DNA from: Escherichia phage vB_EcoM-UFV06
Reading direction: 5' to 3' (one strand)
DNA: 64,000 nt
Sequence record: OP555980.1
Shown: positions 2,831 to 58,890 of the stretch, one piece after another
Numbering within the stretch: the first letter of the stretch is position 1
Layout of the letters: the number at the start of each line of letters is the position of its first letter
The notes under the pieces: generated by a model
What the model was told of the DNA's origin: nothing
Seen by the model: the letters and a program-made list of their open reading frames with translations, nothing else
Database searches by the model: none
Made by a program: the position numbers and the translations under genes

Positions 2831-3304
2831 TTATTTGATTTGTTTAGCAGACCAAATGCGGTCTTTAATAATTTTTTGGATGTCTTCAACATACTCAAGA
2901 GAATGAGCATGTGGGTTATCTTTAAAGCTATGAGCACGAGCTAGCTTTTGGCCTTCAGTTTTGATTACTAAAAGCTCTTTAAGGATAGCTTCATATTTGG
3001 AGATAATTCCTTTAACGATATTTTTTTCTTGTGCGACTTTAGGATCTGCTTTAGGAGCAGGTTTACCCGAAGCCTTTGCAAAAGCAGCGCCAGTAGCAAC
3101 TAAACTTTTCCAGGCCATACTAACTGCATTTCCCGTAAATCCTTCCGCTTTCATGTCGCGTGCGAACTGGAATCGTGATTCATCAGAAGCATCTTTGTAA
3201 GAATATTTACCCGCTGCAATGGCTGCTTTTGCGACAGCTTGAATTTCGGTGCTAGATGCTTCATTTAACACCGCTTCATTTAAAAATTGAGTATATGATT
3301 TCAT
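2831..3304 (-). CDS. internal-protein-like head protein with capsid-targeting sequence
   Basis: N-terminus MKSYTQFLNEA resembles the T4 IP targeting sequence MKTYQEFIAE with L-x-E cleavage motif; own TATAAATA upstream; terminator hairpins on both sides. Confidence 0.6.
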   Translation of the reverse strand: MKSYTQFLNEAVLNEASSTEIQAVAKAAIAAGKYSYKDASDESRFQFARDMKAEGFTGNAVSMAWKSLVATGAAFAKASGKPAPKADPKVAQEKNIVKGIISKYEAILKELLVIKTEGQKLARAHSFKDNPHAHSLEYVEDIQKIIKDRIWSAKQIK

Positions 3305-3340
3305 CTTATTTCCTGTTTTAATTCGTGGATTTAATATACT

Positions 3341-3348
3341 TATTTATA
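3341..3348 (-). promoter_or_regulatory. late-promoter motif TATAAATA upstream of internal-protein-like gene
   Basis: Plus TATTTATA at 3341-3348, about 36 nt upstream of ATG at 3304. Confidence 0.45.
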
Positions 3349-3354
3349 CTAAAA

Positions 3355-3378
3355 AGCCCCAACCTTTTGGTCGGGGCT
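3355..3378 (-). terminator. intrinsic terminator (near-identical copy of the 2796-2822 element)
   Basis: AAAAAGCCCCAACCTTTTGGTCGGGGCT versus AAAAAGCCCCAACCTTTTGGTCGGGACT at 2796. Confidence 0.55.
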
Positions 3379-3379
3379 A

Positions 3380-3685
3380 AGCCTTGCGGCAACCTTGTCG
3401 GGGTTCCACCTGCTAAGGCAAGTGTTTGTACGAAACGCCGGGATTCGAACCCGGTTATTAAGCAGTTGACGCTACTCAATATTTTTAAAAGGCCATATCT
3501 CGACCATATCCGAACGTTCCGTCAAAAACGCTACTCGGCTTACGGCAAAGATATTTCCTCGAATCGATAATTCGGTGCGCCGTTTCTGCTGTGATAGTAA
3601 AGAGCCAGAACACAGTAAAACTGTGGGAGGAAACTATACTCCAGGGAACATCAGTCCGACGACTTACCGGTAGCGACCCGGTTTC
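3380..3685 (-). ncRNA. putative small stable RNA(s), rnaC/rnaD-like region
   Basis: About 300 nt without ORF, GC-richer than surroundings; contains tRNA-like T-arm (CCGGGTTCGAATCCCGG on minus strand, plus 3438-3454) with pairing acceptor-like ends; ends at a terminator hairpin. Confidence 0.35.
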
Positions 3686-4036
3686 TTAGTATTCTTTTAA
3701 AGCATCAATTTGTTCACGGCGTTTACGCCATAAATCAATTGCTTCATAAGCAGATTCAGCATTTCGAATTAGCCGACATTTATATAAAGACTTGTGATTT
3801 TGGTATTGCGTAGATAATGGAATTTTATCTAAAAGGTCTTTGCGTTCAAAGTATTCGTAACCATCTAAACCAAATGAACGATTTTTGAGAAATTGCCAAT
3901 GACCATATTCGTTTTCGACATAAACATAATCTGCATGCTGATAAAGCAAATTAATTACACGTTCAGAAATAACAGTATCATTATGATTAAAATAGAATGT
4001 TAAATCATGAACTACTAAATAAACATTACCTTTCAT
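3686..4036 (-). CDS. hypothetical protein
   Basis: 116-aa ORF between tRNA-Arg and the small-RNA region. Confidence 0.5.
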   Translation of the reverse strand: MKGNVYLVVHDLTFYFNHNDTVISERVINLLYQHADYVYVENEYGHWQFLKNRSFGLDGYEYFERKDLLDKIPLSTQYQNHKSLYKCRLIRNAESAYEAIDLWRKRREQIDALKEY

Positions 4037-4054
4037 ATTTTCCTCACTTATAAT

Positions 4055-4130
4055 TGGTCGAGGCAGTAGGGATCGAACCTACGACCCAGGACTTAGAAGG
4101 TCCTTGCTCTTCCTTCTGAGCTATGCCCCG
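4055..4130 (-). tRNA. tRNA-Arg (anticodon UCU), CCA encoded
   Basis: Hand-folded cloverleaf; anticodon loop CTTCTAA; T-arm GTAGG/TTCGATC/CCTAC; acceptor CGGGGCA/TGCCTCG. Confidence 0.8.
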
Positions 4131-4134
4131 TAAT

Positions 4135-4210
4135 TGGGGTGACCGATGGGAGTCGAACCCATGACTACGAGAATCACAATCTCGAGTTCTACCAACTGAA
4201 CTACGGCCAC
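4135..4210 (-). tRNA. tRNA, anticodon GUG (His by code; tentative, no G-1)
   Basis: Cloverleaf with U8, A14, G18G19, T-loop TTCGACT; anticodon loop TTGTGAT; CCA encoded. Confidence 0.55.
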
Positions 4211-4324
4211 ATTAATACCTACTCCAACAATCATGATGTCTTCACACGAAATTAAGAGAAGAGTGATCAGTTCAACCCCTATAATCGCGTCAAGTAGATA
4301 TTAATGTGACAGTTGTCACAAATT

Positions 4325-4399
4325 TGGCGGACGTGATAGGATTCGAACCTATAACCAATCGCTTAACAGGCGATCGCTCTGCCATTGAGCTACACATCC
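4325..4399 (-). tRNA. tRNA-Asn (GUU)
   Basis: Cloverleaf; anticodon stem ATCGC/GCGAT, loop CTGTTAA; T-loop TTCGAAT; CCA encoded. Confidence 0.8.
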
Positions 4400-4403
4400 A
4401 AAT

Positions 4404-4490
4404 TGGTGGGGAGTGATGGAGTCGAACCACCCGAGTCGCAATGACAATGAATTTACAGTCCACACCGCTACCTCTACGGGATAACTCCCC
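4404..4490 (-). tRNA. tRNA-Tyr (GUA), long variable arm
   Basis: 87 nt, 3-bp D-stem, anticodon loop CTGTAAA, 15-nt variable arm, T-loop TTCGACT; CCA encoded. Confidence 0.7.
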
Positions 4491-4496
4491 TTAATT

Positions 4497-4571
4497 TGGT
4501 GGCCCTGGGTGGAATTGAACCACCATCTGGCGATTATGAGTCGCTTGCTTGAACCTTCCAGCTACAGGGCC
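4497..4571 (-). tRNA. tRNA with anticodon CAU (Met or lysidine-modified Ile, as in T4 tRNA-Ile)
   Basis: Cloverleaf; anticodon loop CTCATAA; T-arm GGTGG/TTCAATT/CCACC; acceptor GGCCCTG/CAGGGCC. Confidence 0.75.
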
Positions 4572-4572
4572 T

Positions 4573-4648
4573 TGGTGCTGATTGACGGAATCGAACCGCC
4601 GACATCCTCATTACAAGTGAGGTGCTCTACCTACTGAGCTAAATCAGC
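4573..4648 (-). tRNA. tRNA-Thr (UGU)
   Basis: Cloverleaf; anticodon stem CCTCA/TGAGG, loop CTTGTAA; T-loop TTCGATT. Confidence 0.8.
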
Positions 4649-4653
4649 AAAGC

Positions 4654-4743
4654 TGGCGGAGGCGATAGGATTTGAACCTATGAATCGCCGGAGCGACTGC
4701 CGGTTTTCAAGACCGGTGCATTAAACCACTCTGCCACGCCTCC
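4654..4743 (-). tRNA. tRNA-Ser (UGA), long variable arm
   Basis: 90 nt; anticodon stem CCGGT/ACCGG, loop CTTGAAA; T-loop TTCAAAT; CCA encoded. Confidence 0.8.
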
Positions 4744-4745
4744 AG

Positions 4746-4819
4746 TCTCCATACAAGGATTTGAACCTTGGACCTCCTGATCCCAAATCAGGCGCTCTAC
4801 CAAACTGAGCTACACGGAG
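4746..4819 (-). tRNA. tRNA-Pro (UGG), CCA not encoded
   Basis: Anticodon stem CCTGA/TCAGG, loop TTTGGGA; T-arm CAAGG/TTCAAAT/CCTTG; only 2 nt from tRNA-Ser 5' end. Confidence 0.8.
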
Positions 4820-4829
4820 TAAATTAAAT

Positions 4830-4903
<74 letters not shown>

Positions 4904-4908
4904 AAATT

Positions 4909-4995
4909 TGGTGCGAGAAGTGGGACTCGAACCCACAAGGAAATCATTCCGCAGCATTTTAAGTGCTGTGCCTTTACCAATTTGACCATTCTCGC
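4909..4995 (-). tRNA. tRNA-Leu (UAA), long variable arm
   Basis: 87 nt; anticodon stem CAGCA/TGCTG, loop CTTAAAA; T-loop TTCGAGT; CCA encoded. Confidence 0.8.
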
Positions 4996-4996
4996 G

Positions 4997-5069
4997 CTGG
5001 GAATAAAGGATTCGAACCTTTGCATCTAGCAGTCAAAGTGCTATGCCTTACCAACTTGGCTAATTCCCA
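4997..5069 (-). tRNA. tRNA-Gln (UUG), U1:A72, CCA not encoded
   Basis: Anticodon stem TAGCA/TGCTA, loop CTTTGAC; T-loop TTCGAAT; 1 nt from tRNA-Leu 5' end. Confidence 0.8.
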
Positions 5070-5155: not shown

Positions 5156-5680
5156 TTAAAGCAAATTAAACATTTTAACAGTCGGCAAAACAATTTCTTT
5201 TTCTATATAAGAGTATTTAACACTCTCAACTACACGCAAAAAATCATAATCATAATACTCAGAAGCACTGCCTAAAATATTAATAAGTCCTTCAAGCACT
5301 TTATTACCATTCACAAAGAATAAGTCAAATACACGTTCTTCGTCTTCTTCGGATTTATTACCAAGGTCAACTTCTATGTCAAAGACCTTTTTAATGAATT
5401 CTGGATAAAGTTGTTCTGAGAACAGTCCTTCAACCAAGTATTCATAAATAAAAAGCGATTGCTCGCTGAACAAGCCATTACCACAATAACGTTCAGCTTT
5501 AGTACTAGAATGTCTGCTTTTAAACTTCTTTAAAAGATATTGGAATTGTAAGATTTCATGCTCTTCTACGCCAAACAGTGTTTTAGTTTTATAGTTGTCA
5601 CCATCATTTTCCCAGGTAGTGACATCAATTACGTAACCCTGTGGAATTGTAGTACCTAAACAAATATTCATTTTCACCAC
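5156..5680 (-). CDS. hypothetical protein (variable locus between tRNAs and ipI)
   Basis: 174-aa ORF, no capsid-targeting sequence, no motif recognised. Confidence 0.5.
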   Translation of the reverse strand: MVKMNICLGTTIPQGYVIDVTTWENDGDNYKTKTLFGVEEHEILQFQYLLKKFKSRHSSTKAERYCGNGLFSEQSLFIYEYLVEGLFSEQLYPEFIKKVFDIEVDLGNKSEEDEERVFDLFFVNGNKVLEGLINILGSASEYYDYDFLRVVESVKYSYIEKEIVLPTVKMFNLL

Positions 5681-5964
5681 GCTGCATTAATATACGTTTT
5701 CTGAATGCATTCAAGACCTAAAGGATTCTTGAAAATATCATATTCAAGAGGACCTTTTTCTGTTTCAATAAAGAAATCAAAATTTACTGTATTAAATTTA
5801 CGGTCTTCCTTCACTAATTTAACTTGAGAAGATGAACGGTCAACATAAACCTTTTCAACTTCAAAACATGTTAAAACGCCATAATCATCAATCAAGGCTT
5901 TAGCCGCGTCTTGATCATATTTATATCCATTTTCAATGGATGATACTTTCGCATAAAGAATCAT
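5674..5964 (-). CDS. hypothetical protein (variable locus)
   Basis: 96-aa ORF, tightly packed with neighbours. Confidence 0.5.
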   Translation of the reverse strand: MILYAKVSSIENGYKYDQDAAKALIDDYGVLTCFEVEKVYVDRSSSQVKLVKEDRKFNTVNFDFFIETEKGPLEYDIFKNPLGLECIQKTYINAAW

Positions 5965-5966
5965 TA

Positions 5967-6371
5967 TTAACCTTTATCAACAATAGTATGTGTATGGGCA
6001 TTTACGATTTGCCACCAGTCAAAACTATCGCCAAATCGTTTTGATTTATTGTCTTCAATAATTTGGCGTAATTCATCTTCTGTTTCAGCATACGCAATCA
6101 AATCATCATATCCACCGCAAGGATAGTAATTATCGCCTGCGAACAAAAGAAAATTTACTTTAGATGGGTCTACATAATAATGCTCTTTAGGATATTTAGT
6201 TCCTTTCCAATCAGTTACTTCAACATAACGATAAGAAAATCCATTTTTACTTTCAACCCAACTCCACGCTTCAAAAGGAGTATTAAAAACTCTATCAGGT
6301 ATTAAATTACCTTCAAAATGAGAAGGATTTGCATAATCCCCAGCATAAACATAATATTCGTTAATATTCAT
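5967..6371 (-). CDS. hypothetical protein (variable locus)
   Basis: 134-aa ORF; Tyr/Trp-rich; stop abuts next gene start. Confidence 0.5.
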   Translation of the reverse strand: MNINEYYVYAGDYANPSHFEGNLIPDRVFNTPFEAWSWVESKNGFSYRYVEVTDWKGTKYPKEHYYVDPSKVNFLLFAGDNYYPCGGYDDLIAYAETEDELRQIIEDNKSKRFGDSFDWWQIVNAHTHTIVDKG

Positions 6372-6557
6372 TTATTCACCTTTAGAAATTTTATCCATAA
6401 CAATAGCGATTAAACCAATTAAAAATGCTACTACAAGTGAAAAAACATTTTCTGCTGTAGTCAATAATCCGCATATAAATCCAACAAACATTGAAAAACT
6501 AAAAGCGGAAGCAGAAATTGCAATAGCAACATTTCGAATTAATTCACAACGTTTCAT
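6372..6557 (-). CDS. hypothetical small membrane protein
   Basis: 61 aa with two hydrophobic helices; early-promoter motif and GAGGAG SD upstream. Confidence 0.45.
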   Translation of the reverse strand: MKRCELIRNVAIAISASAFSFSMFVGFICGLLTTAENVFSLVVAFLIGLIAIVMDKISKGE

Positions 6558-6585
6558 TTTATTCTCCTCGGTAGTTGATAGGGTA

Positions 6586-6614
6586 ATAGTATCACAACTA
6601 AAACCCTATGTAAA
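6586..6614 (-). promoter_or_regulatory. early promoter, TTTACA-17 bp-TACTAT
   Basis: Same motif family; upstream of 61-aa gene. Confidence 0.5.
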
Positions 6615-6633
6615 CAACTTTGTGAAATATTTA

Positions 6634-6918
6634 TTACAAAAGATTTTTAGCAATAATTTTAAGCTGAGCTACTGAAATATGCTTGGCTTTAAACAAAGCA
6701 GTTTCTTCAGCAGGGGAGATAACGATTGTAGCACCATCTTTCTTAGCGGACCATCCATCACCCAGGTAAACAGTACCTTTGACTTCTTCGCCATCAACCA
6801 GGCTAATCATCGGTTTACCTTCACGTCCTTTGTTTGCTTTAATAACTTCAGAAGTAAGGGTCGCTTCAGTCAAAGTAGAAGCGTTAGTGGTTGAAGTGAA
6901 TTCTTGATAAGTTTTCAT
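6634..6918 (-). CDS. ipI: internal protein I-like, capsid-targeting sequence at N-terminus
   Basis: MKTYQEF... N-terminus; 94 aa; adjacent to 57B as in T4; early-promoter motif upstream. Confidence 0.55.
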   Translation of the reverse strand: MKTYQEFTSTTNASTLTEATLTSEVIKANKGREGKPMISLVDGEEVKGTVYLGDGWSAKKDGATIVISPAEETALFKAKHISVAQLKIIAKNLL

Positions 6919-6948
6919 TTTATTTTCCTAATTAATTTTGATGAGGTA

Positions 6949-6977
6949 ATAGTATCACTACCTCATCAGCATGTAAA
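6949..6977 (-). promoter_or_regulatory. early promoter, TTTACA-17 bp-TACTAT, with embedded 9-bp inverted repeat
   Basis: Minus strand ...gttgTTTACAtgctgatgaggtagtgaTACTATtacctcatc...; upstream of ipI-like gene. Confidence 0.5.
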
Positions 6978-6990
6978 CAACTTTGTGAAA

Positions 6991-7687
<697 letters not shown>

Positions 7688-54324: not shown

Positions 54325-54328
54325 CAAT

Positions 54329-54346
54329 GGGGACCGAAAGGTCCCC
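54329..54346. terminator. stem-loop between gene 54 (+) and minus-strand genes
   Basis: GGGGACCGAAAGGTCCCC. Confidence 0.55.
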
Positions 54347-54352
54347 ATATTT

Positions 54353-54643
54353 TTATTTACGGAATGAAATAAAAGCAGCAACTGAAGCAACAGAGGTTTC
54401 TTCAATATAAACCTCAATTTTTACCGGAGCTTCTGACTCAAATTTACCTGTTACTACACCTTGGAAAATACTTTCAGTCTGTTCTGGCTTTGAAAAATTT
54501 TCAGAAGGAAAAATTCCAAACTTTTTATCGGTTCCGAAAATTTTAATAAATTCATCATAAACTGCTTCATTGAAAGCGTTATCAGCGGGAATAACGCCTT
54601 CAACGACGAGTTCTTGACCTAAAAAGCGCAAAGAAGATTTCAT
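54353..54643 (-). CDS. hypothetical protein (alt.-x position)
   Basis: 96-aa ORF; early-promoter motif TTTACA-17-TATAAT upstream. Confidence 0.5.
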   Translation of the reverse strand: MKSSLRFLGQELVVEGVIPADNAFNEAVYDEFIKIFGTDKKFGIFPSENFSKPEQTESIFQGVVTGKFESEAPVKIEVYIEETSVASVAAFISFRK

Positions 54644-54703: not shown

Positions 54704-56761
54704 CTACATTTTGAACTTTTTAGACATTCCGTTGATGTTAACCAAAGAAGCTAAGATTTGAGAAACTTCGTTTTCCTCTTCTTTTGATTCTTCTACAAGG
54801 AATTGATTAAATCCAGCCATTGGACGAACTTCACCAGTTTCCATCAGATGGTCGCCATCATATACTGATTCTTCTAATTGTTCAGAAGGAGGAACGATTG
54901 TACCTTCGATTAGATACTTGTTATAAGCAGTTTCTTTCATCATGTACGTACTTACTTTATTAATCTTCAGTAAAATTCCACGCGGCAAAATAACTTCAGC
55001 TTCGGATGGAAATCCTGATAAATGACCTGGAACGATAACTTTAACTCGTTCAGCTCCTTTAATTACCATACCTACATTAGTTTCAGCGTCTTCATTCGCA
55101 TATGTAGAATGACTACCCATATGCATTAAATCTTCAGCATCAACTGAACCTTCTCCTTCACCAGAAAATACTGCTCCGGAATCATCTAAGGCCATATAAT
55201 TTTTACCATATTCACCGAAGATATTTGGCTTGAGTGAAGTAGATACAAAGTTCTTGAAATAGAACATTTTATTTTCTATATTATGACGTAAAGTTTTAAA
55301 GGTAACTTCTTGCCCACGATAAAGAGTAGTTCCTGGAGGAAGAACTGAACCTTTAGAAAATGCAGAATCCAGCGTCTCAATATGTTTAATAGCTCGTTCC
55401 ATATATTCTTCACGGGTAGAATCAGGTTTACCTAGAAGGAACGAGTTCATTTCAACATATGAATCTGCGCAATAATCTTCAATTACATCAGACTCAGCCT
55501 GAGTTAATCCTTTTGGAGTTACTTCAGTGCTTGCATATTCATATGCCTGAGCAGCAGATTCATCAATTAATTTATAAATTCCATTCATTACAAATTGAAT
55601 AATAGCTGTCTTTTCATCTGGTGTAGCTTTAGAACCTTTAACTAAATCATTGACAATTTTCTTAATAACATCAAAGCTATTAGAAATATTAATGTCAGCA
55701 AGATCGCTTAAAATTTTATCAGTTTTATAATCAAAGAATTCTTTATTCTTTAAATATTCTTGAGAACCTTGATATGTTATATCGCTCTGCAGCTTGATAG
55801 ATGGATCGCGTAAACGTGCATGGGCCAATGCAATATGATTTCGGAAGCTTTCGAGTTCATAATCACTAGATTTAAAACGAGAAGCACTTCTCATACCACC
55901 GATAGCTCCTTTGCTAAAGTTTGAACCAACCTGAATAACGCCAGAGTTCATTGGTCCTTCTGCTTTATATACCGGAACTTTAGATTCAAACTCTTGATAT
56001 TTCTTAGCAGCGAAGCTATCACCCTGAAGTGAAGCATCAACAGTAGAATATTGAGCTTGTGCTGCTAATCGACGACTAATTTTAGTTTTCTGAATAACAG
56101 CTTGATCCGTGCGCTTATCATTTTCTAAAGCAATAGAAGCAGCAACAGCAACAGCTTTAGGAACAGCATTACCTGTTTTAACGTCTACATAAACATCACC
56201 AACCTTTGATTCAACTTTTGTGAATAACTCGGTTGAAATAGGAGGTACACCTGGAATGTCTTCTAAATTGGCATTTTTACGGTAAACCATAATATATGCG
56301 TACTTTTTATCATAATCCCAGATTTCCTTTAAAAGAACATATCGACCTGCTCCTTTAGTACGTACTAAACGGTCAGCAATAACTTGCATTTGCCGAGCAG
56401 CGCCATTTGTTTTACTTTTTAGTACGCGGAATAAGCATGCATCAATTTTATACTGTTTCATTGTTTGAAGAGCAGTATCAAAAACAGCATTAATGACGCC
56501 AATTGGATTTCCACCCAAGTTTTTAAGCTTAACTAATGATAGTTTCTCATTAACACCTATCATTACGATATGCATCATTTTGTCGCCTGGCTTAACGTTT
56601 TTATTCGTATCACCGCCAGAGGTGTATGTACAAAATCTAAATCCAGGAAGCACGCTTTCTTCACCTGCTTGAATAGCAAAAATTTGAGGTATTTTATGCT
56701 TAGGATTTAAGTTAACAACCGGCGCCGAAGCGCCGTCAAATAATTCTGTAATAAGTTCCAT
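54704..56761 (-). CDS. Alt-like mono-ADP-ribosyltransferase, paralog 2
   Basis: 685 aa; N-terminus MELITELFD shared with neighbour; Arg-STS-ExE signature (LYRGQ, FVSTSL, SEAEVILPRG). Confidence 0.8.
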   Translation of the reverse strand: MELITELFDGASAPVVNLNPKHKIPQIFAIQAGEESVLPGFRFCTYTSGGDTNKNVKPGDKMMHIVMIGVNEKLSLVKLKNLGGNPIGVINAVFDTALQTMKQYKIDACLFRVLKSKTNGAARQMQVIADRLVRTKGAGRYVLLKEIWDYDKKYAYIMVYRKNANLEDIPGVPPISTELFTKVESKVGDVYVDVKTGNAVPKAVAVAASIALENDKRTDQAVIQKTKISRRLAAQAQYSTVDASLQGDSFAAKKYQEFESKVPVYKAEGPMNSGVIQVGSNFSKGAIGGMRSASRFKSSDYELESFRNHIALAHARLRDPSIKLQSDITYQGSQEYLKNKEFFDYKTDKILSDLADINISNSFDVIKKIVNDLVKGSKATPDEKTAIIQFVMNGIYKLIDESAAQAYEYASTEVTPKGLTQAESDVIEDYCADSYVEMNSFLLGKPDSTREEYMERAIKHIETLDSAFSKGSVLPPGTTLYRGQEVTFKTLRHNIENKMFYFKNFVSTSLKPNIFGEYGKNYMALDDSGAVFSGEGEGSVDAEDLMHMGSHSTYANEDAETNVGMVIKGAERVKVIVPGHLSGFPSEAEVILPRGILLKINKVSTYMMKETAYNKYLIEGTIVPPSEQLEESVYDGDHLMETGEVRPMAGFNQFLVEESKEEENEVSQILASLVNINGMSKKFKM

Positions 56762-56764
56762 GAT

Positions 56765-58858
56765 TTATCCTTGAACGAACTTGTAAGGCATGTTTGTAAT
56801 ATCTATGCAAGACGCAATAATTCCAAGAGATGATTCTACTTTCTGTTTAATATTTGATGAAACAAATGATGCAAAGTCAACTCTGTCTTCTATTTCAATA
56901 TCACCTGTCATTGCAACCAATTCACCAGTTTCCATTAAATGGTCTCCATCATAGATTACCGATTCGGTGAGCTCTTCCGTGGTCATAACTTCAGCTTGAA
57001 TGAGTTTTGTATTATTAGATGTTGTTCCGTCATTATTAGAAGCATCGATTATTTTATTAACTTTGACCATCAATCCACGCGGTAGAATAACTTCAGCTTC
57101 TGTTGCTATTCCGAGACTTCCTGGATATACAACATTAACTTTATGAGCTCCATCAATTGCCCATCCTATTTGAACTTTAACATATTCAGGATTTTCTTTA
57201 TACGCTCTTATTTCGTTTGGATTAATAGTTATTCCTTCTTCATTTTTATCAACTGTTAATTCATTGCGAGCTTCTGGTTCTAAAAGACCAATACCAGCAT
57301 GTGTGATTCCAAAACGTCCAAAAATGATAGGAGTTAAAGAAGTAGATACAAAATTTCTGAAGTAGAACACTTTATTTTTAACTAACGCTTCATATATAGG
57401 AGCAGTCATACTTTGAGCACGATAAACTGTAATGCCTTCTGGTATACGGTCACCATTTTCAAAAGCTGAATCTAAGTTATTTATAGCAGATTCAATTTCT
57501 TTTTCACTCATTACATCGTATCGTTCTGGATTGTAACGACCTAAAAGAAGATTATTGATGTCAGTATATCCTGAACCGCAATATTCTCTAATGCCACGCT
57601 TTTGTGATGGAGTATATTTAGAACCATCGCGGGCAATAGTAATATCAATCATTGGACCAGCACCAATTCCAGAAAAACTGTAAATCATTCGTTTGAGGAA
57701 TTTAGTTTTTGCTGCGTTCCAGGAATTTTTAGTTATTTCTTCCCAGACTTCATCTGGTTGTCCTTTACGATTTTTATTATGATTAGCAAGCCATTTATCT
57801 TTATAATCTTCAAAGAATTGATTTACAGCTGCTGCGTATTTCTCTAAACATTTTATTGAAGTAGTTGGTTCATTTTTAATTGCATTAAAAATTACTTCTT
57901 TAATTTTTTCTGAAACTTCACCGACTTGACTCATTGGAAAGAATTTATAATCATAGTGAAGTTCATCTGCCGTTCCTTCAGCAATAATTTTTGCTGCCTT
58001 TGTTTTAGAAGCTAATGAATTAATTCCAATTTTCATTTCTTCTGCTTCGGGAATTAAAGGTGCAGTAGCTGGTTTATTAAAATTAGCTGCTGTAGATTCA
58101 TACTTCTGGAATAATTCACTTTCAAATCTAGAAGATTCCAATGACTGACTTTGTGCAATTGCTCTACGGGAAATTTTAACTTTAACGATTACAGCTTGGT
58201 CAGAACGTTTATCATTTTCTTGCGCAATAGATGCTGCAATTGCTTCATTTTTAGTTACTTGAGCTCCAGTATCTTTATTGATATAAACATCACCGACCTT
58301 CGATTCAACTTTAGTAAAGAGTTCAGTGCTAATTTCTGGAACTCCTGGAATGTCTTCTAATGATACATTTTTGCGATGTATAAGAATATATGCATACTTT
58401 TTATCGTAATCCCAGAGTTCCTTAAGAAGGACGTATCTGCCACCTGAACGACTACGGATAAGTCTATCAGCAATAACTTGAATTTGTCGAGCTTGGCCAG
58501 CAGTTTTAGACTTAAGAATACGAAGCATGCAGGCATCAATTTTATATTGACGCATCGTTTGCATTGCAACAGTAAAAACTGAATTGATATAATTAATTGG
58601 GCTTGGACCAAGACCTTTTAATTTAGCAATTGAGCCTTTAGCAGTTAATGTAAAAGGAACAATATGCATCATTTTATCGCCCATCTTTAAATCGCGATTA
58701 GTATCACCTCCAGATGTATAGGTACATAAACGAAAGCCTGGTTGTTCAATTGCATCATCAACATGAACTGAAAAAATTTGTGGTATTTTCTTCTTTGGAT
58801 TTAAGTTTGTAATCGGAAGAGTAGTATCTTCGTCAAATAATTCTGTAATAAGTTCCAT
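56765..58858 (-). CDS. alt: Alt ADP-ribosyltransferase (head-packaged RNAP-modifying enzyme)
   Basis: 697 aa; MELITELFD N-terminus; VYRAQ, FVSTSL, TEAEVILPRG; TATAAATA on minus strand upstream. Confidence 0.8.
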   Translation of the reverse strand: MELITELFDEDTTLPITNLNPKKKIPQIFSVHVDDAIEQPGFRLCTYTSGGDTNRDLKMGDKMMHIVPFTLTAKGSIAKLKGLGPSPINYINSVFTVAMQTMRQYKIDACMLRILKSKTAGQARQIQVIADRLIRSRSGGRYVLLKELWDYDKKYAYILIHRKNVSLEDIPGVPEISTELFTKVESKVGDVYINKDTGAQVTKNEAIAASIAQENDKRSDQAVIVKVKISRRAIAQSQSLESSRFESELFQKYESTAANFNKPATAPLIPEAEEMKIGINSLASKTKAAKIIAEGTADELHYDYKFFPMSQVGEVSEKIKEVIFNAIKNEPTTSIKCLEKYAAAVNQFFEDYKDKWLANHNKNRKGQPDEVWEEITKNSWNAAKTKFLKRMIYSFSGIGAGPMIDITIARDGSKYTPSQKRGIREYCGSGYTDINNLLLGRYNPERYDVMSEKEIESAINNLDSAFENGDRIPEGITVYRAQSMTAPIYEALVKNKVFYFRNFVSTSLTPIIFGRFGITHAGIGLLEPEARNELTVDKNEEGITINPNEIRAYKENPEYVKVQIGWAIDGAHKVNVVYPGSLGIATEAEVILPRGLMVKVNKIIDASNNDGTTSNNTKLIQAEVMTTEELTESVIYDGDHLMETGELVAMTGDIEIEDRVDFASFVSSNIKQKVESSLGIIASCIDITNMPYKFVQG

Positions 58859-58882
58859 GTTATCCTCTCTAGTGTTTATTCT

Positions 58883-58890
58883 ATTTATAA
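58883..58890 (-). promoter_or_regulatory. late-promoter motif upstream of alt
   Basis: Plus TATTTATA; about 25 nt upstream of alt ATG at 58858. Confidence 0.5.

Follow-up and report, generated by a model that had tools for sequence, protein, structure and literature searches.

The 64,000-nucleotide stretch of Escherichia phage vB_EcoM-UFV06 that we analysed in this study (sequence record OP555980.1; hereafter referred to as the window) carries, one directly behind the other on the minus strand, two genes that code for diverged members of the Alt family of ADP-ribosyltransferases (ARTs). We consider it likely that the products of both genes, Alt and Alt2, are arginine-specific ARTs that are produced late in infection, packaged into the phage head, processed by the protease gp21 and injected into the host, and that they have different targets there. 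The two genes, referred to below as the distal and the proximal copy, are located as follows:

56765-58858, minus strand: alt, the distal copy, coding for 697 amino acids (aa), with support from its open reading frame (ORF) and from Pfam and PHROG matches; a T6-type allele.
54704-56761, minus strand: alt2, the proximal copy, coding for 685 aa; called 'alt.-2' in phages RB14 and T6 and 'Alt2' in the BASEL records.

The sizes, strand and coordinates of the two ORFs, as well as the N-terminus MELITELFD shared by their products, had been given in a first-pass annotation of this DNA and were all found to be exact on re-checking. The two proteins align over their full length with an identity of 42% (BLASTP, E = 1e-164). 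Both of them scored above the cut-off (23.4 bits) of the Pfam domain PF03496 (ADPrib_exo_Tox), with 126.9 bits (8.2e-37) for the distal and 73.5 bits (1.8e-20) for the proximal protein, and for protein-database entries closely related to the proximal protein, the precomputed domains comprise PF26846 in addition to PF03496. The family phrog_802, annotated as 'Alt-like RNA polymerase ADP-ribosyltransferase', spans the proximal protein from end to end (1-685/674, E = 4.5e-257) and covers residues 1-696 (/674) of the distal protein (E = 2.4e-272), while a search of both proteins against the NCBIfam profiles yielded no matching model. By every defining feature that can be tested in the sequence, both proteins are full-length members of the Alt family; the assignment of the window proteins to PF03496, and thereby to the C3/VIP2-like toxins, applies at the superfamily level only. 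The genomic location points in the same direction: the neighbours of the pair are gp29, gp48 and gp54 at one end and alt.1, DNA ligase (gene 30) and 30.1-30.3 at the opposite end, in the same order as in T4, so that it occupies, between gene 30/alt.1 and alt.-3/gene 54, the alt locus of T4. The window was assigned to Tequatrovirus, and in the region of the pair it matches Escherichia phage vB_EcoM-UFV05 with 100% identity; the record of the latter labels the proximal gene only as 'hypothetical protein'.

Both copies have the complete set of residues expected for an arginine-specific ART. The catalytic residues are R480, S505-T506-S507 and E587-x-E589 in the distal and R482, S507-T508-S509 and E587-x-E589 in the proximal protein. 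The motif around the arginine reads ITVYRAQ and TTLYRGQ, respectively, FVSTSL is common to both copies, and the ExE motif is embedded in TEAEVILPRG (distal) and SEAEVILPRG (proximal). All of the motifs quoted in the first-pass annotation for this Arg/STS/ExE signature were found in both copies, and the possibility raised there, that careful alignment would reveal one copy to lack catalytic residues, did not materialise: the columns R478, S503/T504/S505 and E574/E576 (T4 numbering) were invariant in an alignment of T4 Alt with the two window proteins. The same columns were also invariant among 21 homologues with identities down to 43%, save for the threonine of the STS motif (at least 90%). An E-x-E motif predicts arginine as target, and Q-x-E is found in the asparagine-specific C3 enzymes; Alt2 is predicted to be an arginine-specific mono-ADP-ribosyltransferase with catalytic activity. 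One host target of T4 Alt is R265 of the alpha subunit of RNA polymerase. In T4 Alt, ADP-ribosylation activity was abolished by mutation of the second glutamate of the ExE motif (E577A; PMC11404850). The numbering in that study is offset by one, E577 corresponding to E576 as counted in NP_049811, where the ExE motif consists of E574 and E576.

In the AlphaFold2 (AF2) model of the proximal protein (mean predicted local distance difference test score of 76), an alpha/beta N-domain (residues ~15-235) is followed by an all-helical region (~240-470), the ART domain (~470-622) and, from residue 629 onwards, a disordered tail of low confidence. A Foldseek search of the PDB, with the whole model including all of its domains as query, retrieved the toxins Vis, C3bot, Certhrax, CDTa and VIP2 (4xzk, 1gze, 4gf1, 2wn7 and 1qs1) as top matches, with a probability of 1.00, E-values from 5e-8 to 3e-5 and sequence identities of 13-20%. 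The target-normalised template modelling scores were 0.57-0.67 for the single-domain targets Vis and C3. No structure of an Alt protein was found in the PDB by sequence, and the only matches by fold were toxin ART domains. The window proteins share the catalytic fold and the R-S-E motif with the C3, Vis, VIP2 and iota/CDTa toxins; unlike the secreted C3/VIP2-class toxins, however, they have an N-domain of ~240 aa, a helical region of ~230 aa and propeptides predicted to be removed by a protease, and proteins of the Alt type are delivered by the phage head instead of by secretion. The T4 proteins ModA and ModB are, like the window proteins, phage ARTs of the R-S-E type, and according to the literature they modify host proteins of transcription and translation. 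They consist of only ~200 aa, however, are expressed early, do not enter the head and have neither the N-terminal nor the middle domain, and the window proteins are set apart from them by having Alt families as best matches.

With regard to packaging and processing, the conserved motifs suggest that Alt2 follows the same route as T4 Alt. The latter is a non-essential protein of the prohead core that is present in ~40 copies and is cleaved (PMC9026906); gp21 cuts it at ITE-6 and LTE-619, resulting in a protein of 68.2 kDa (Ali et al. 2017, PMC5694885). The mass that we computed for residues 7-619 of T4 Alt, 68.2 kDa, matches this published value. The sequence MELITE\LF, in which the backslash stands for the cleavage site behind the ITE-6 motif, is identical in T4 Alt and in the distal and proximal proteins. 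The C-terminal gp21 motif is found at the aligned position of all three proteins, as LTE-619 in T4 Alt, LTE-632 in the distal and LEE-631 in the proximal protein, directly in front of the sequence SV(I)YDGDHLMETGE. Cleavage at these sites would result in mature proteins of 70.1 kDa (distal) and 69.1 kDa (proximal), the latter after loss of an acidic C-terminal propeptide of 54 aa, and the disordered tail beyond residue 629 of the AF2 model is as expected for such a C-propeptide. The sequence element shared by the two paralogs is considerably longer than the nine residues of the common start, since it extends over the entire N-terminal 238 aa, in which the two have 67% identity. The shared N-terminus of the two copies, which the first-pass annotation had taken to be head-targeting, could be substantiated as an identical propeptide and a ~238-aa domain with 67% identity, along with the retention of both gp21 motifs. 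Identity between the paralogs drops to 9-20% in the ~180 residues that follow, the middle region, and amounts to 31-36% in the ART domain.

The distal gene itself represents one of at least two sharply different alleles of alt. Its product is 97.3% identical to T6 Alt and, with the pattern of a mosaic, 72% identical overall to T4 Alt (NP_049811). By segment, the identities between the distal protein and T4 Alt are:

Residues 1-238: 99.6%.
Residues 239-420: 32%.
ART domain: 59%.
C-terminal tail: ~90%.

In addition, the distal copy differs from T4 Alt by an insertion of 11 residues ahead of the ExE motif and by EAE in place of EME. The proximal protein is 43% identical to T4 Alt overall and 9% identical in the middle region. 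In spite of these differences, T4 Alt resembles both window proteins in length class, domain order, the MELITE sequence, the gp21 motifs, the R/STS/ExE residues, the locus and the late promoter. A comparison with the extracted T4 locus (5455-7503) revealed that the alleles have near-identical ends and a differing helical middle, and ~316 records have at least 90% identity to the distal protein (T6-type) and ~212 have 60-80% identity, T4 belonging to the latter. The boundaries between the conserved and the variable parts resemble break-points of recombination, as if the centre of the gene were a cassette that can be swapped.

The tandem arrangement of alt and alt2, the novelty of which had been implied initially, turned out to be ordinary in Tequatrovirus. 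T6 and RB14 contain both genes, arranged as in the window, the BASEL records label the pair 'ADP-ribosyltransferase Alt' and 'ADP-ribosyltransferase Alt2', the RefSeq records label both genes 'Alt-like RNA polymerase ADP-ribosyltransferase', and paralogous alt duplications, among them the T4 fragments described below and, in phage 44RR, a duplicate of full length, were listed as early as 2006 (Nolan et al., PMC1524935). The arrangement is therefore already known and named, and it is included in a preprint screen. The pairs of T6 and RB14 (alt and alt.-2) and of the BASEL phages (Alt and Alt2 of Bas37 KarlGJung, Bas38 AugustSocin and Bas41) agree with that of the window in genes, order and the 3-nt junction between them, with 97-98% protein identity and, for Bas38, 99.5% DNA identity over the region, i.e. 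there is no substantive difference. In 356 phage records, at least 80% of a 4.85-kb query spanning both genes was covered at one place, and ~401 phage records, including those of T6, RB14 and RB33, hold the proximal protein intact at an identity of at least 90%. An artefact of assembly or duplication, which the first reading had likewise dismissed in view of the divergence of the copies, can be ruled out because the copies are only 42% identical and because the same pair recurs in hundreds of independent genomes. In the record of Shigella phage sb1 (PQ666539; extracted locus 3001-5058), the annotation divides alt2 into two ORFs of 178 aa and 415 aa, and gp48 is broken up as well, which may reflect either genuine decay in another lineage or frameshifts introduced by sequencing.

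T4 itself does not carry the pair in an intact and characterised form, as had been considered possible, but a decayed remnant of the second gene. Its alt.-1 and alt.-2, annotated as 'hypothetical proteins' of 61 and 67 aa, match the first ~116 codons and the last ~20 nt of the proximal gene. According to the translation, alt.-1 corresponds to the first 54 residues of Alt2, after which the frame is lost. The T4 DNA aligns to positions 56761-56414 of the window and picks up again at 54723, so that ~1.69 kb including the whole catalytic domain are deleted, and the families phrog_23015 and phrog_15247, which derive from the T4 fragments, give the proximal protein a far better score than the distal one. 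The T4 record describes alt.-1/alt.-2 as 'an old duplication of the first part of gene alt'; the T6 annotators remarked on an 'apparent insertion in alt.-2; also similar to alt'. Mapping of the T4 DNA on the window led us to replace the reading as a partial duplication by that of an internal deletion: the comparison with the intact proximal gene shows alt.-1/alt.-2 to be a deletion remnant, with an additional frameshift, of a full-length paralog.

The loss in T4 bears on the possibility that Alt2 is not packaged at all, and either acts late in the cell that produces it or is a redundant back-up drifting towards loss. T4 is fully viable after deletion of most of the gene, the gene of sb1 is split into two annotated ORFs, and our literature searches did not find a proteomic detection of Alt2, all of which would fit such a scenario. 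The gene of the window, however, does not look like one in decay. Using the method of Nei and Gojobori against the orthologues of T6 and RB14, we obtained ratios of nonsynonymous to synonymous substitution rates (dN/dS) of 0.042-0.046 for alt2 (dS ~0.2), compared to 0.05-0.08 for alt, and the ART codons 416-631 of alt2 were the most constrained of its larger segments (dN/dS 0.03-0.04). Since dN/dS is ~0.045, alt2 is under strong purifying selection, and this value together with the intact motifs ruled out that the gene is a pseudogene or decaying copy in this phage. The ~401 records with an intact 685-aa gene at an identity of at least 90% speak against drift as well, the conserved gp21 motifs and propeptide would have no purpose outside the prohead, and the split in sb1 may be a sequencing error, as gp48 is likewise split in that record. 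The opposite signs of the Alt and Alt2 insertion phenotypes described next are at odds with redundancy. Overall, we regard an unpackaged or residual Alt2 as very improbable.

Functional data on both genes are contained in the HIDEN-SEQ transposon data in the supplementary tables of a preprint (10.1101/2025.11.20.689424) for phage Bas37 (KarlGJung, MZ501089), the Alt2 of which is identical to the proximal protein at 674 of 685 positions (98%) and the Alt of which is identical to the distal protein at 679 of 697 (97%). In the Bas37 reference library, Alt2 was classified as 'Intermediate' (116 of 164 TA sites hit) and Alt as 'Non-essential' (164/179). On Escherichia coli K-12, the mean number of reads per TA site was 44.5 for Alt2 compared to 203.6 for Alt and ~170-200 for neighbouring non-essential genes, i.e. 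Alt2 insertions were ~4.5-fold under-represented on plain K-12. The changes in insertion abundance on other hosts, given as log2 fold change (log2FC), were as follows:

CFT073: Alt2 +0.11, Alt +0.01.
CFE299: Alt2 +0.19, Alt -0.06.
CFE303 (assigned from the sequence of tables within the file): Alt2 0.00, Alt -0.24.
CFE331: Alt2 +0.12 (q = 1), Alt -1.56 (q = 0).
CFE336: Alt2 +0.36, Alt +0.11.
K-12 ΔRM versus Mokosh type I: Alt2 +1.32 (41.6 to 105.3, q = 0; ~2.5-fold enriched).
K-12 ΔRM versus Mokosh type I: Alt -7.74 (213.1 to 0.0, q = 0).

These data show that loss of alt2 is mildly advantageous on a host with Mokosh type I, and that insertions in alt2, but not in alt, are costly on K-12. Since the insertion phenotypes differ in sign, Alt and Alt2 are non-redundant, and since Alt insertions vanish when Mokosh type I is present, an intact alt2 cannot replace alt against this defence in Bas37. 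According to the same preprint, ectopic expression of T4 Alt partly rescues growth on Mokosh type I, and that of Bas37 Alt does not (10.1101/2025.11.20.689424). The initial proposal that the roles of the two enzymes differ, with one directed at a defence of the host, is borne out in outline by the Bas37 data, Alt being needed against Mokosh type I and Alt2 not; the substrates of the two are probably distinct as well.

The same data can be viewed differently if Alt2 is assumed to be a structural competitor or modulator that vies with Alt for a limited number of slots in the prohead core, in which case the phenotypes would reflect the dosage of Alt and not a catalytic activity of Alt2. The 67% identity of the N-terminal 238 aa, the identical propeptide and the ~40 copies of Alt that are packaged in T4 are compatible with such a competition, and the gain in fitness on Mokosh type I upon disruption of Bas37 Alt2 (+1.32, q = 0) would be expected if more Alt is then packaged. 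Strong purifying selection on the catalytic triad and the whole ART domain of Alt2 (0.03-0.04) is unexpected for a space-filler, however, and competition leaves the ~4.5-fold under-representation of Alt2 insertions on K-12 unexplained, as Alt is dispensable there. Taken alone, we thus consider this explanation improbable. A combination in which Alt2 is a second injected effector with substrates of its own, the dose of which is traded off against that of Alt through the shared packaging domain and a fixed number of head slots, is less likely than not, and we put it forward as a tentative possibility. If this were true, alt2 would help on common hosts and at the same time slightly weaken the Alt-dependent evasion of Mokosh type I.

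We favour the account in which both proteins are injected enzymes, and propose the following sequence of events. The late promoter ahead of alt would drive both genes, alt2 being read off the same message. By analogy with T4 Alt, the conserved N-domain of ~238 aa, which follows the six-residue propeptide MELITE, would steer each protein into the prohead core; it is succeeded in each protein by the highly diverged helical middle, the C3/VIP2-like catalytic domain and the acidic C-propeptide. After trimming of both ends by gp21, at ITE-6 and at L-x-E around residue 631, the mature proteins of ~69-70 kDa would enter the host along with the DNA and, with nicotinamide adenine dinucleotide (NAD+) as donor, modify host proteins by ADP-ribosylation of arginines. 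The choice of substrates may be set by the helical middle and the loops between STS and ExE, the same region in which the T4-type allele of alt differs from the T6-type one, and it is because the middle region and these loops differ strongly that we propose different sets of substrates, and non-redundancy, for the two proteins. In the host, Alt would allow the phage to evade Mokosh type I and Alt2 would act on other targets and improve growth on ordinary E. coli K-12. In T4, alt2 has been lost by the internal deletion.

A number of points weigh against this account. We found no direct evidence that Alt2 is present in the virion, cleaved or enzymatically active; literature searches yielded no virion proteomics study naming Alt2 or a second Alt, and nothing specific was found in searches on Alt2, alt.-2 and Alt-like. 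T4 grows well without alt2, the gene being dispensable in the laboratory. The PF03496 score is lower for the proximal copy (73.5 versus 126.9 bits), and its region between STS and ExE differs from both Alt alleles in length as well as in sequence. The transposon data stem from the supplement of a preprint, the main text of which does not mention Alt2. Finally, insertions in Alt carry no cost on K-12 although alt lies upstream of alt2; this implies that the transposon is non-polar, that alt2 has a promoter of its own or that the cost of Alt2 insertions is caused by truncated products.

The expression signals of the two genes comprise the following elements (nt, nucleotides):

58882-58889, minus strand: late promoter motif TATAAATA, T4-type, 31 nt upstream of the ATG of the distal gene.
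56762-56764, minus strand: intergenic spacer of 3 nt (TAA ATC ATG).
57478-57485, minus strand: second TATAAATA, a perfect motif inside the ORF of the distal copy and 724 nt upstream of the ATG of alt2.

A GC-rich hairpin, AAAGGCCTTCGGGCCTTT, follows alt.1 and stands directly ahead of the motif at 58882-58889, and this context 5' of alt is the same in T4, T6, RB14 and Bas37/38/41. The AAGGA Shine-Dalgarno sequence of alt2 lies within the last codons of the alt ORF, and the alt/alt2 junction is identical in T4, Bas37 and Bas38. The short spacer and the position of AAGGA at the end of alt imply that alt2 is probably co-transcribed with alt and that its translation is initiated independently. A separate promoter of the sigma-70 type or a terminator for alt2 was rejected, since a consensus scan found neither between the two genes. 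The first-pass annotation had assigned a late promoter of its own to the distal copy alone. This holds for the intergenic DNA; it does not hold for the whole upstream region, given the second TATAAATA inside alt. This internal motif is kept in all six T6-type alleles that we checked, including those of T6, RB14, Bas37, Bas38 and Bas41, and is absent from the T4-type and sb1 alleles. Its conservation may reflect coding constraint only, because the motif codes for Ala-Ile-Asn within a conserved part of the protein; it is thus either a possible late promoter of alt2 or a chance or coding-constrained match. A late alt2 transcript starting there would explain why Alt insertions are non-polar on the Alt2 phenotype in HIDEN-SEQ. 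On both strands of the window, TATAAATA occurs 24 times, compared to 8.8 +/- 2.7 expected from shuffles, an excess that is consistent with a T4-type structural region rich in late genes.

Outside of the ART pair, the locus contains one further gene for which the transposon data are informative:

54353-54643, minus strand: alt.-3 orthologue, 96 aa, phrog_1739.

It is preceded by an early promoter of the sigma-70 type, TTTACA-17-TATAAT at 54703-54675, with 11 of 12 consensus matches, and a hairpin at 54327-54348 reads as a terminator on both strands. Insertions in its Bas37 counterpart, bas37_0031, were depleted on E. coli CFT073 (log2FC -2.70, q = 0.02) and not significantly depleted on the other four clinical strains or on Mokosh-carrying K-12, which suggests a host-specific role of wild-type Alt.-3. 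For T4, mutants with a C-terminal extension of Alt.-3 were reported to escape the CmdTAC defence (PMC11618068).

The textbook set of three T4 ADP-ribosyltransferases, Alt, ModA and ModB, derives from a phage in which a fourth one has been lost. A strongly conserved Alt2 is kept in ~400 records, mostly of Tequatrovirus, and the transposon data suggest a role other than that of a spare copy of Alt. The substrates of Alt2, once identified, would widen the known set of proteins modified by a T-even phage during the first seconds after infection. Should the proposed trade-off between Alt and Alt2 be true, it would represent a measurable balance of costs and benefits between two packaged anti-host enzymes and could explain why alt2 has been discarded in lineages such as T4. 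Knowledge of the Alt2 substrates would also aid in reading differences in host range and defence evasion among therapeutic T4-like phages.

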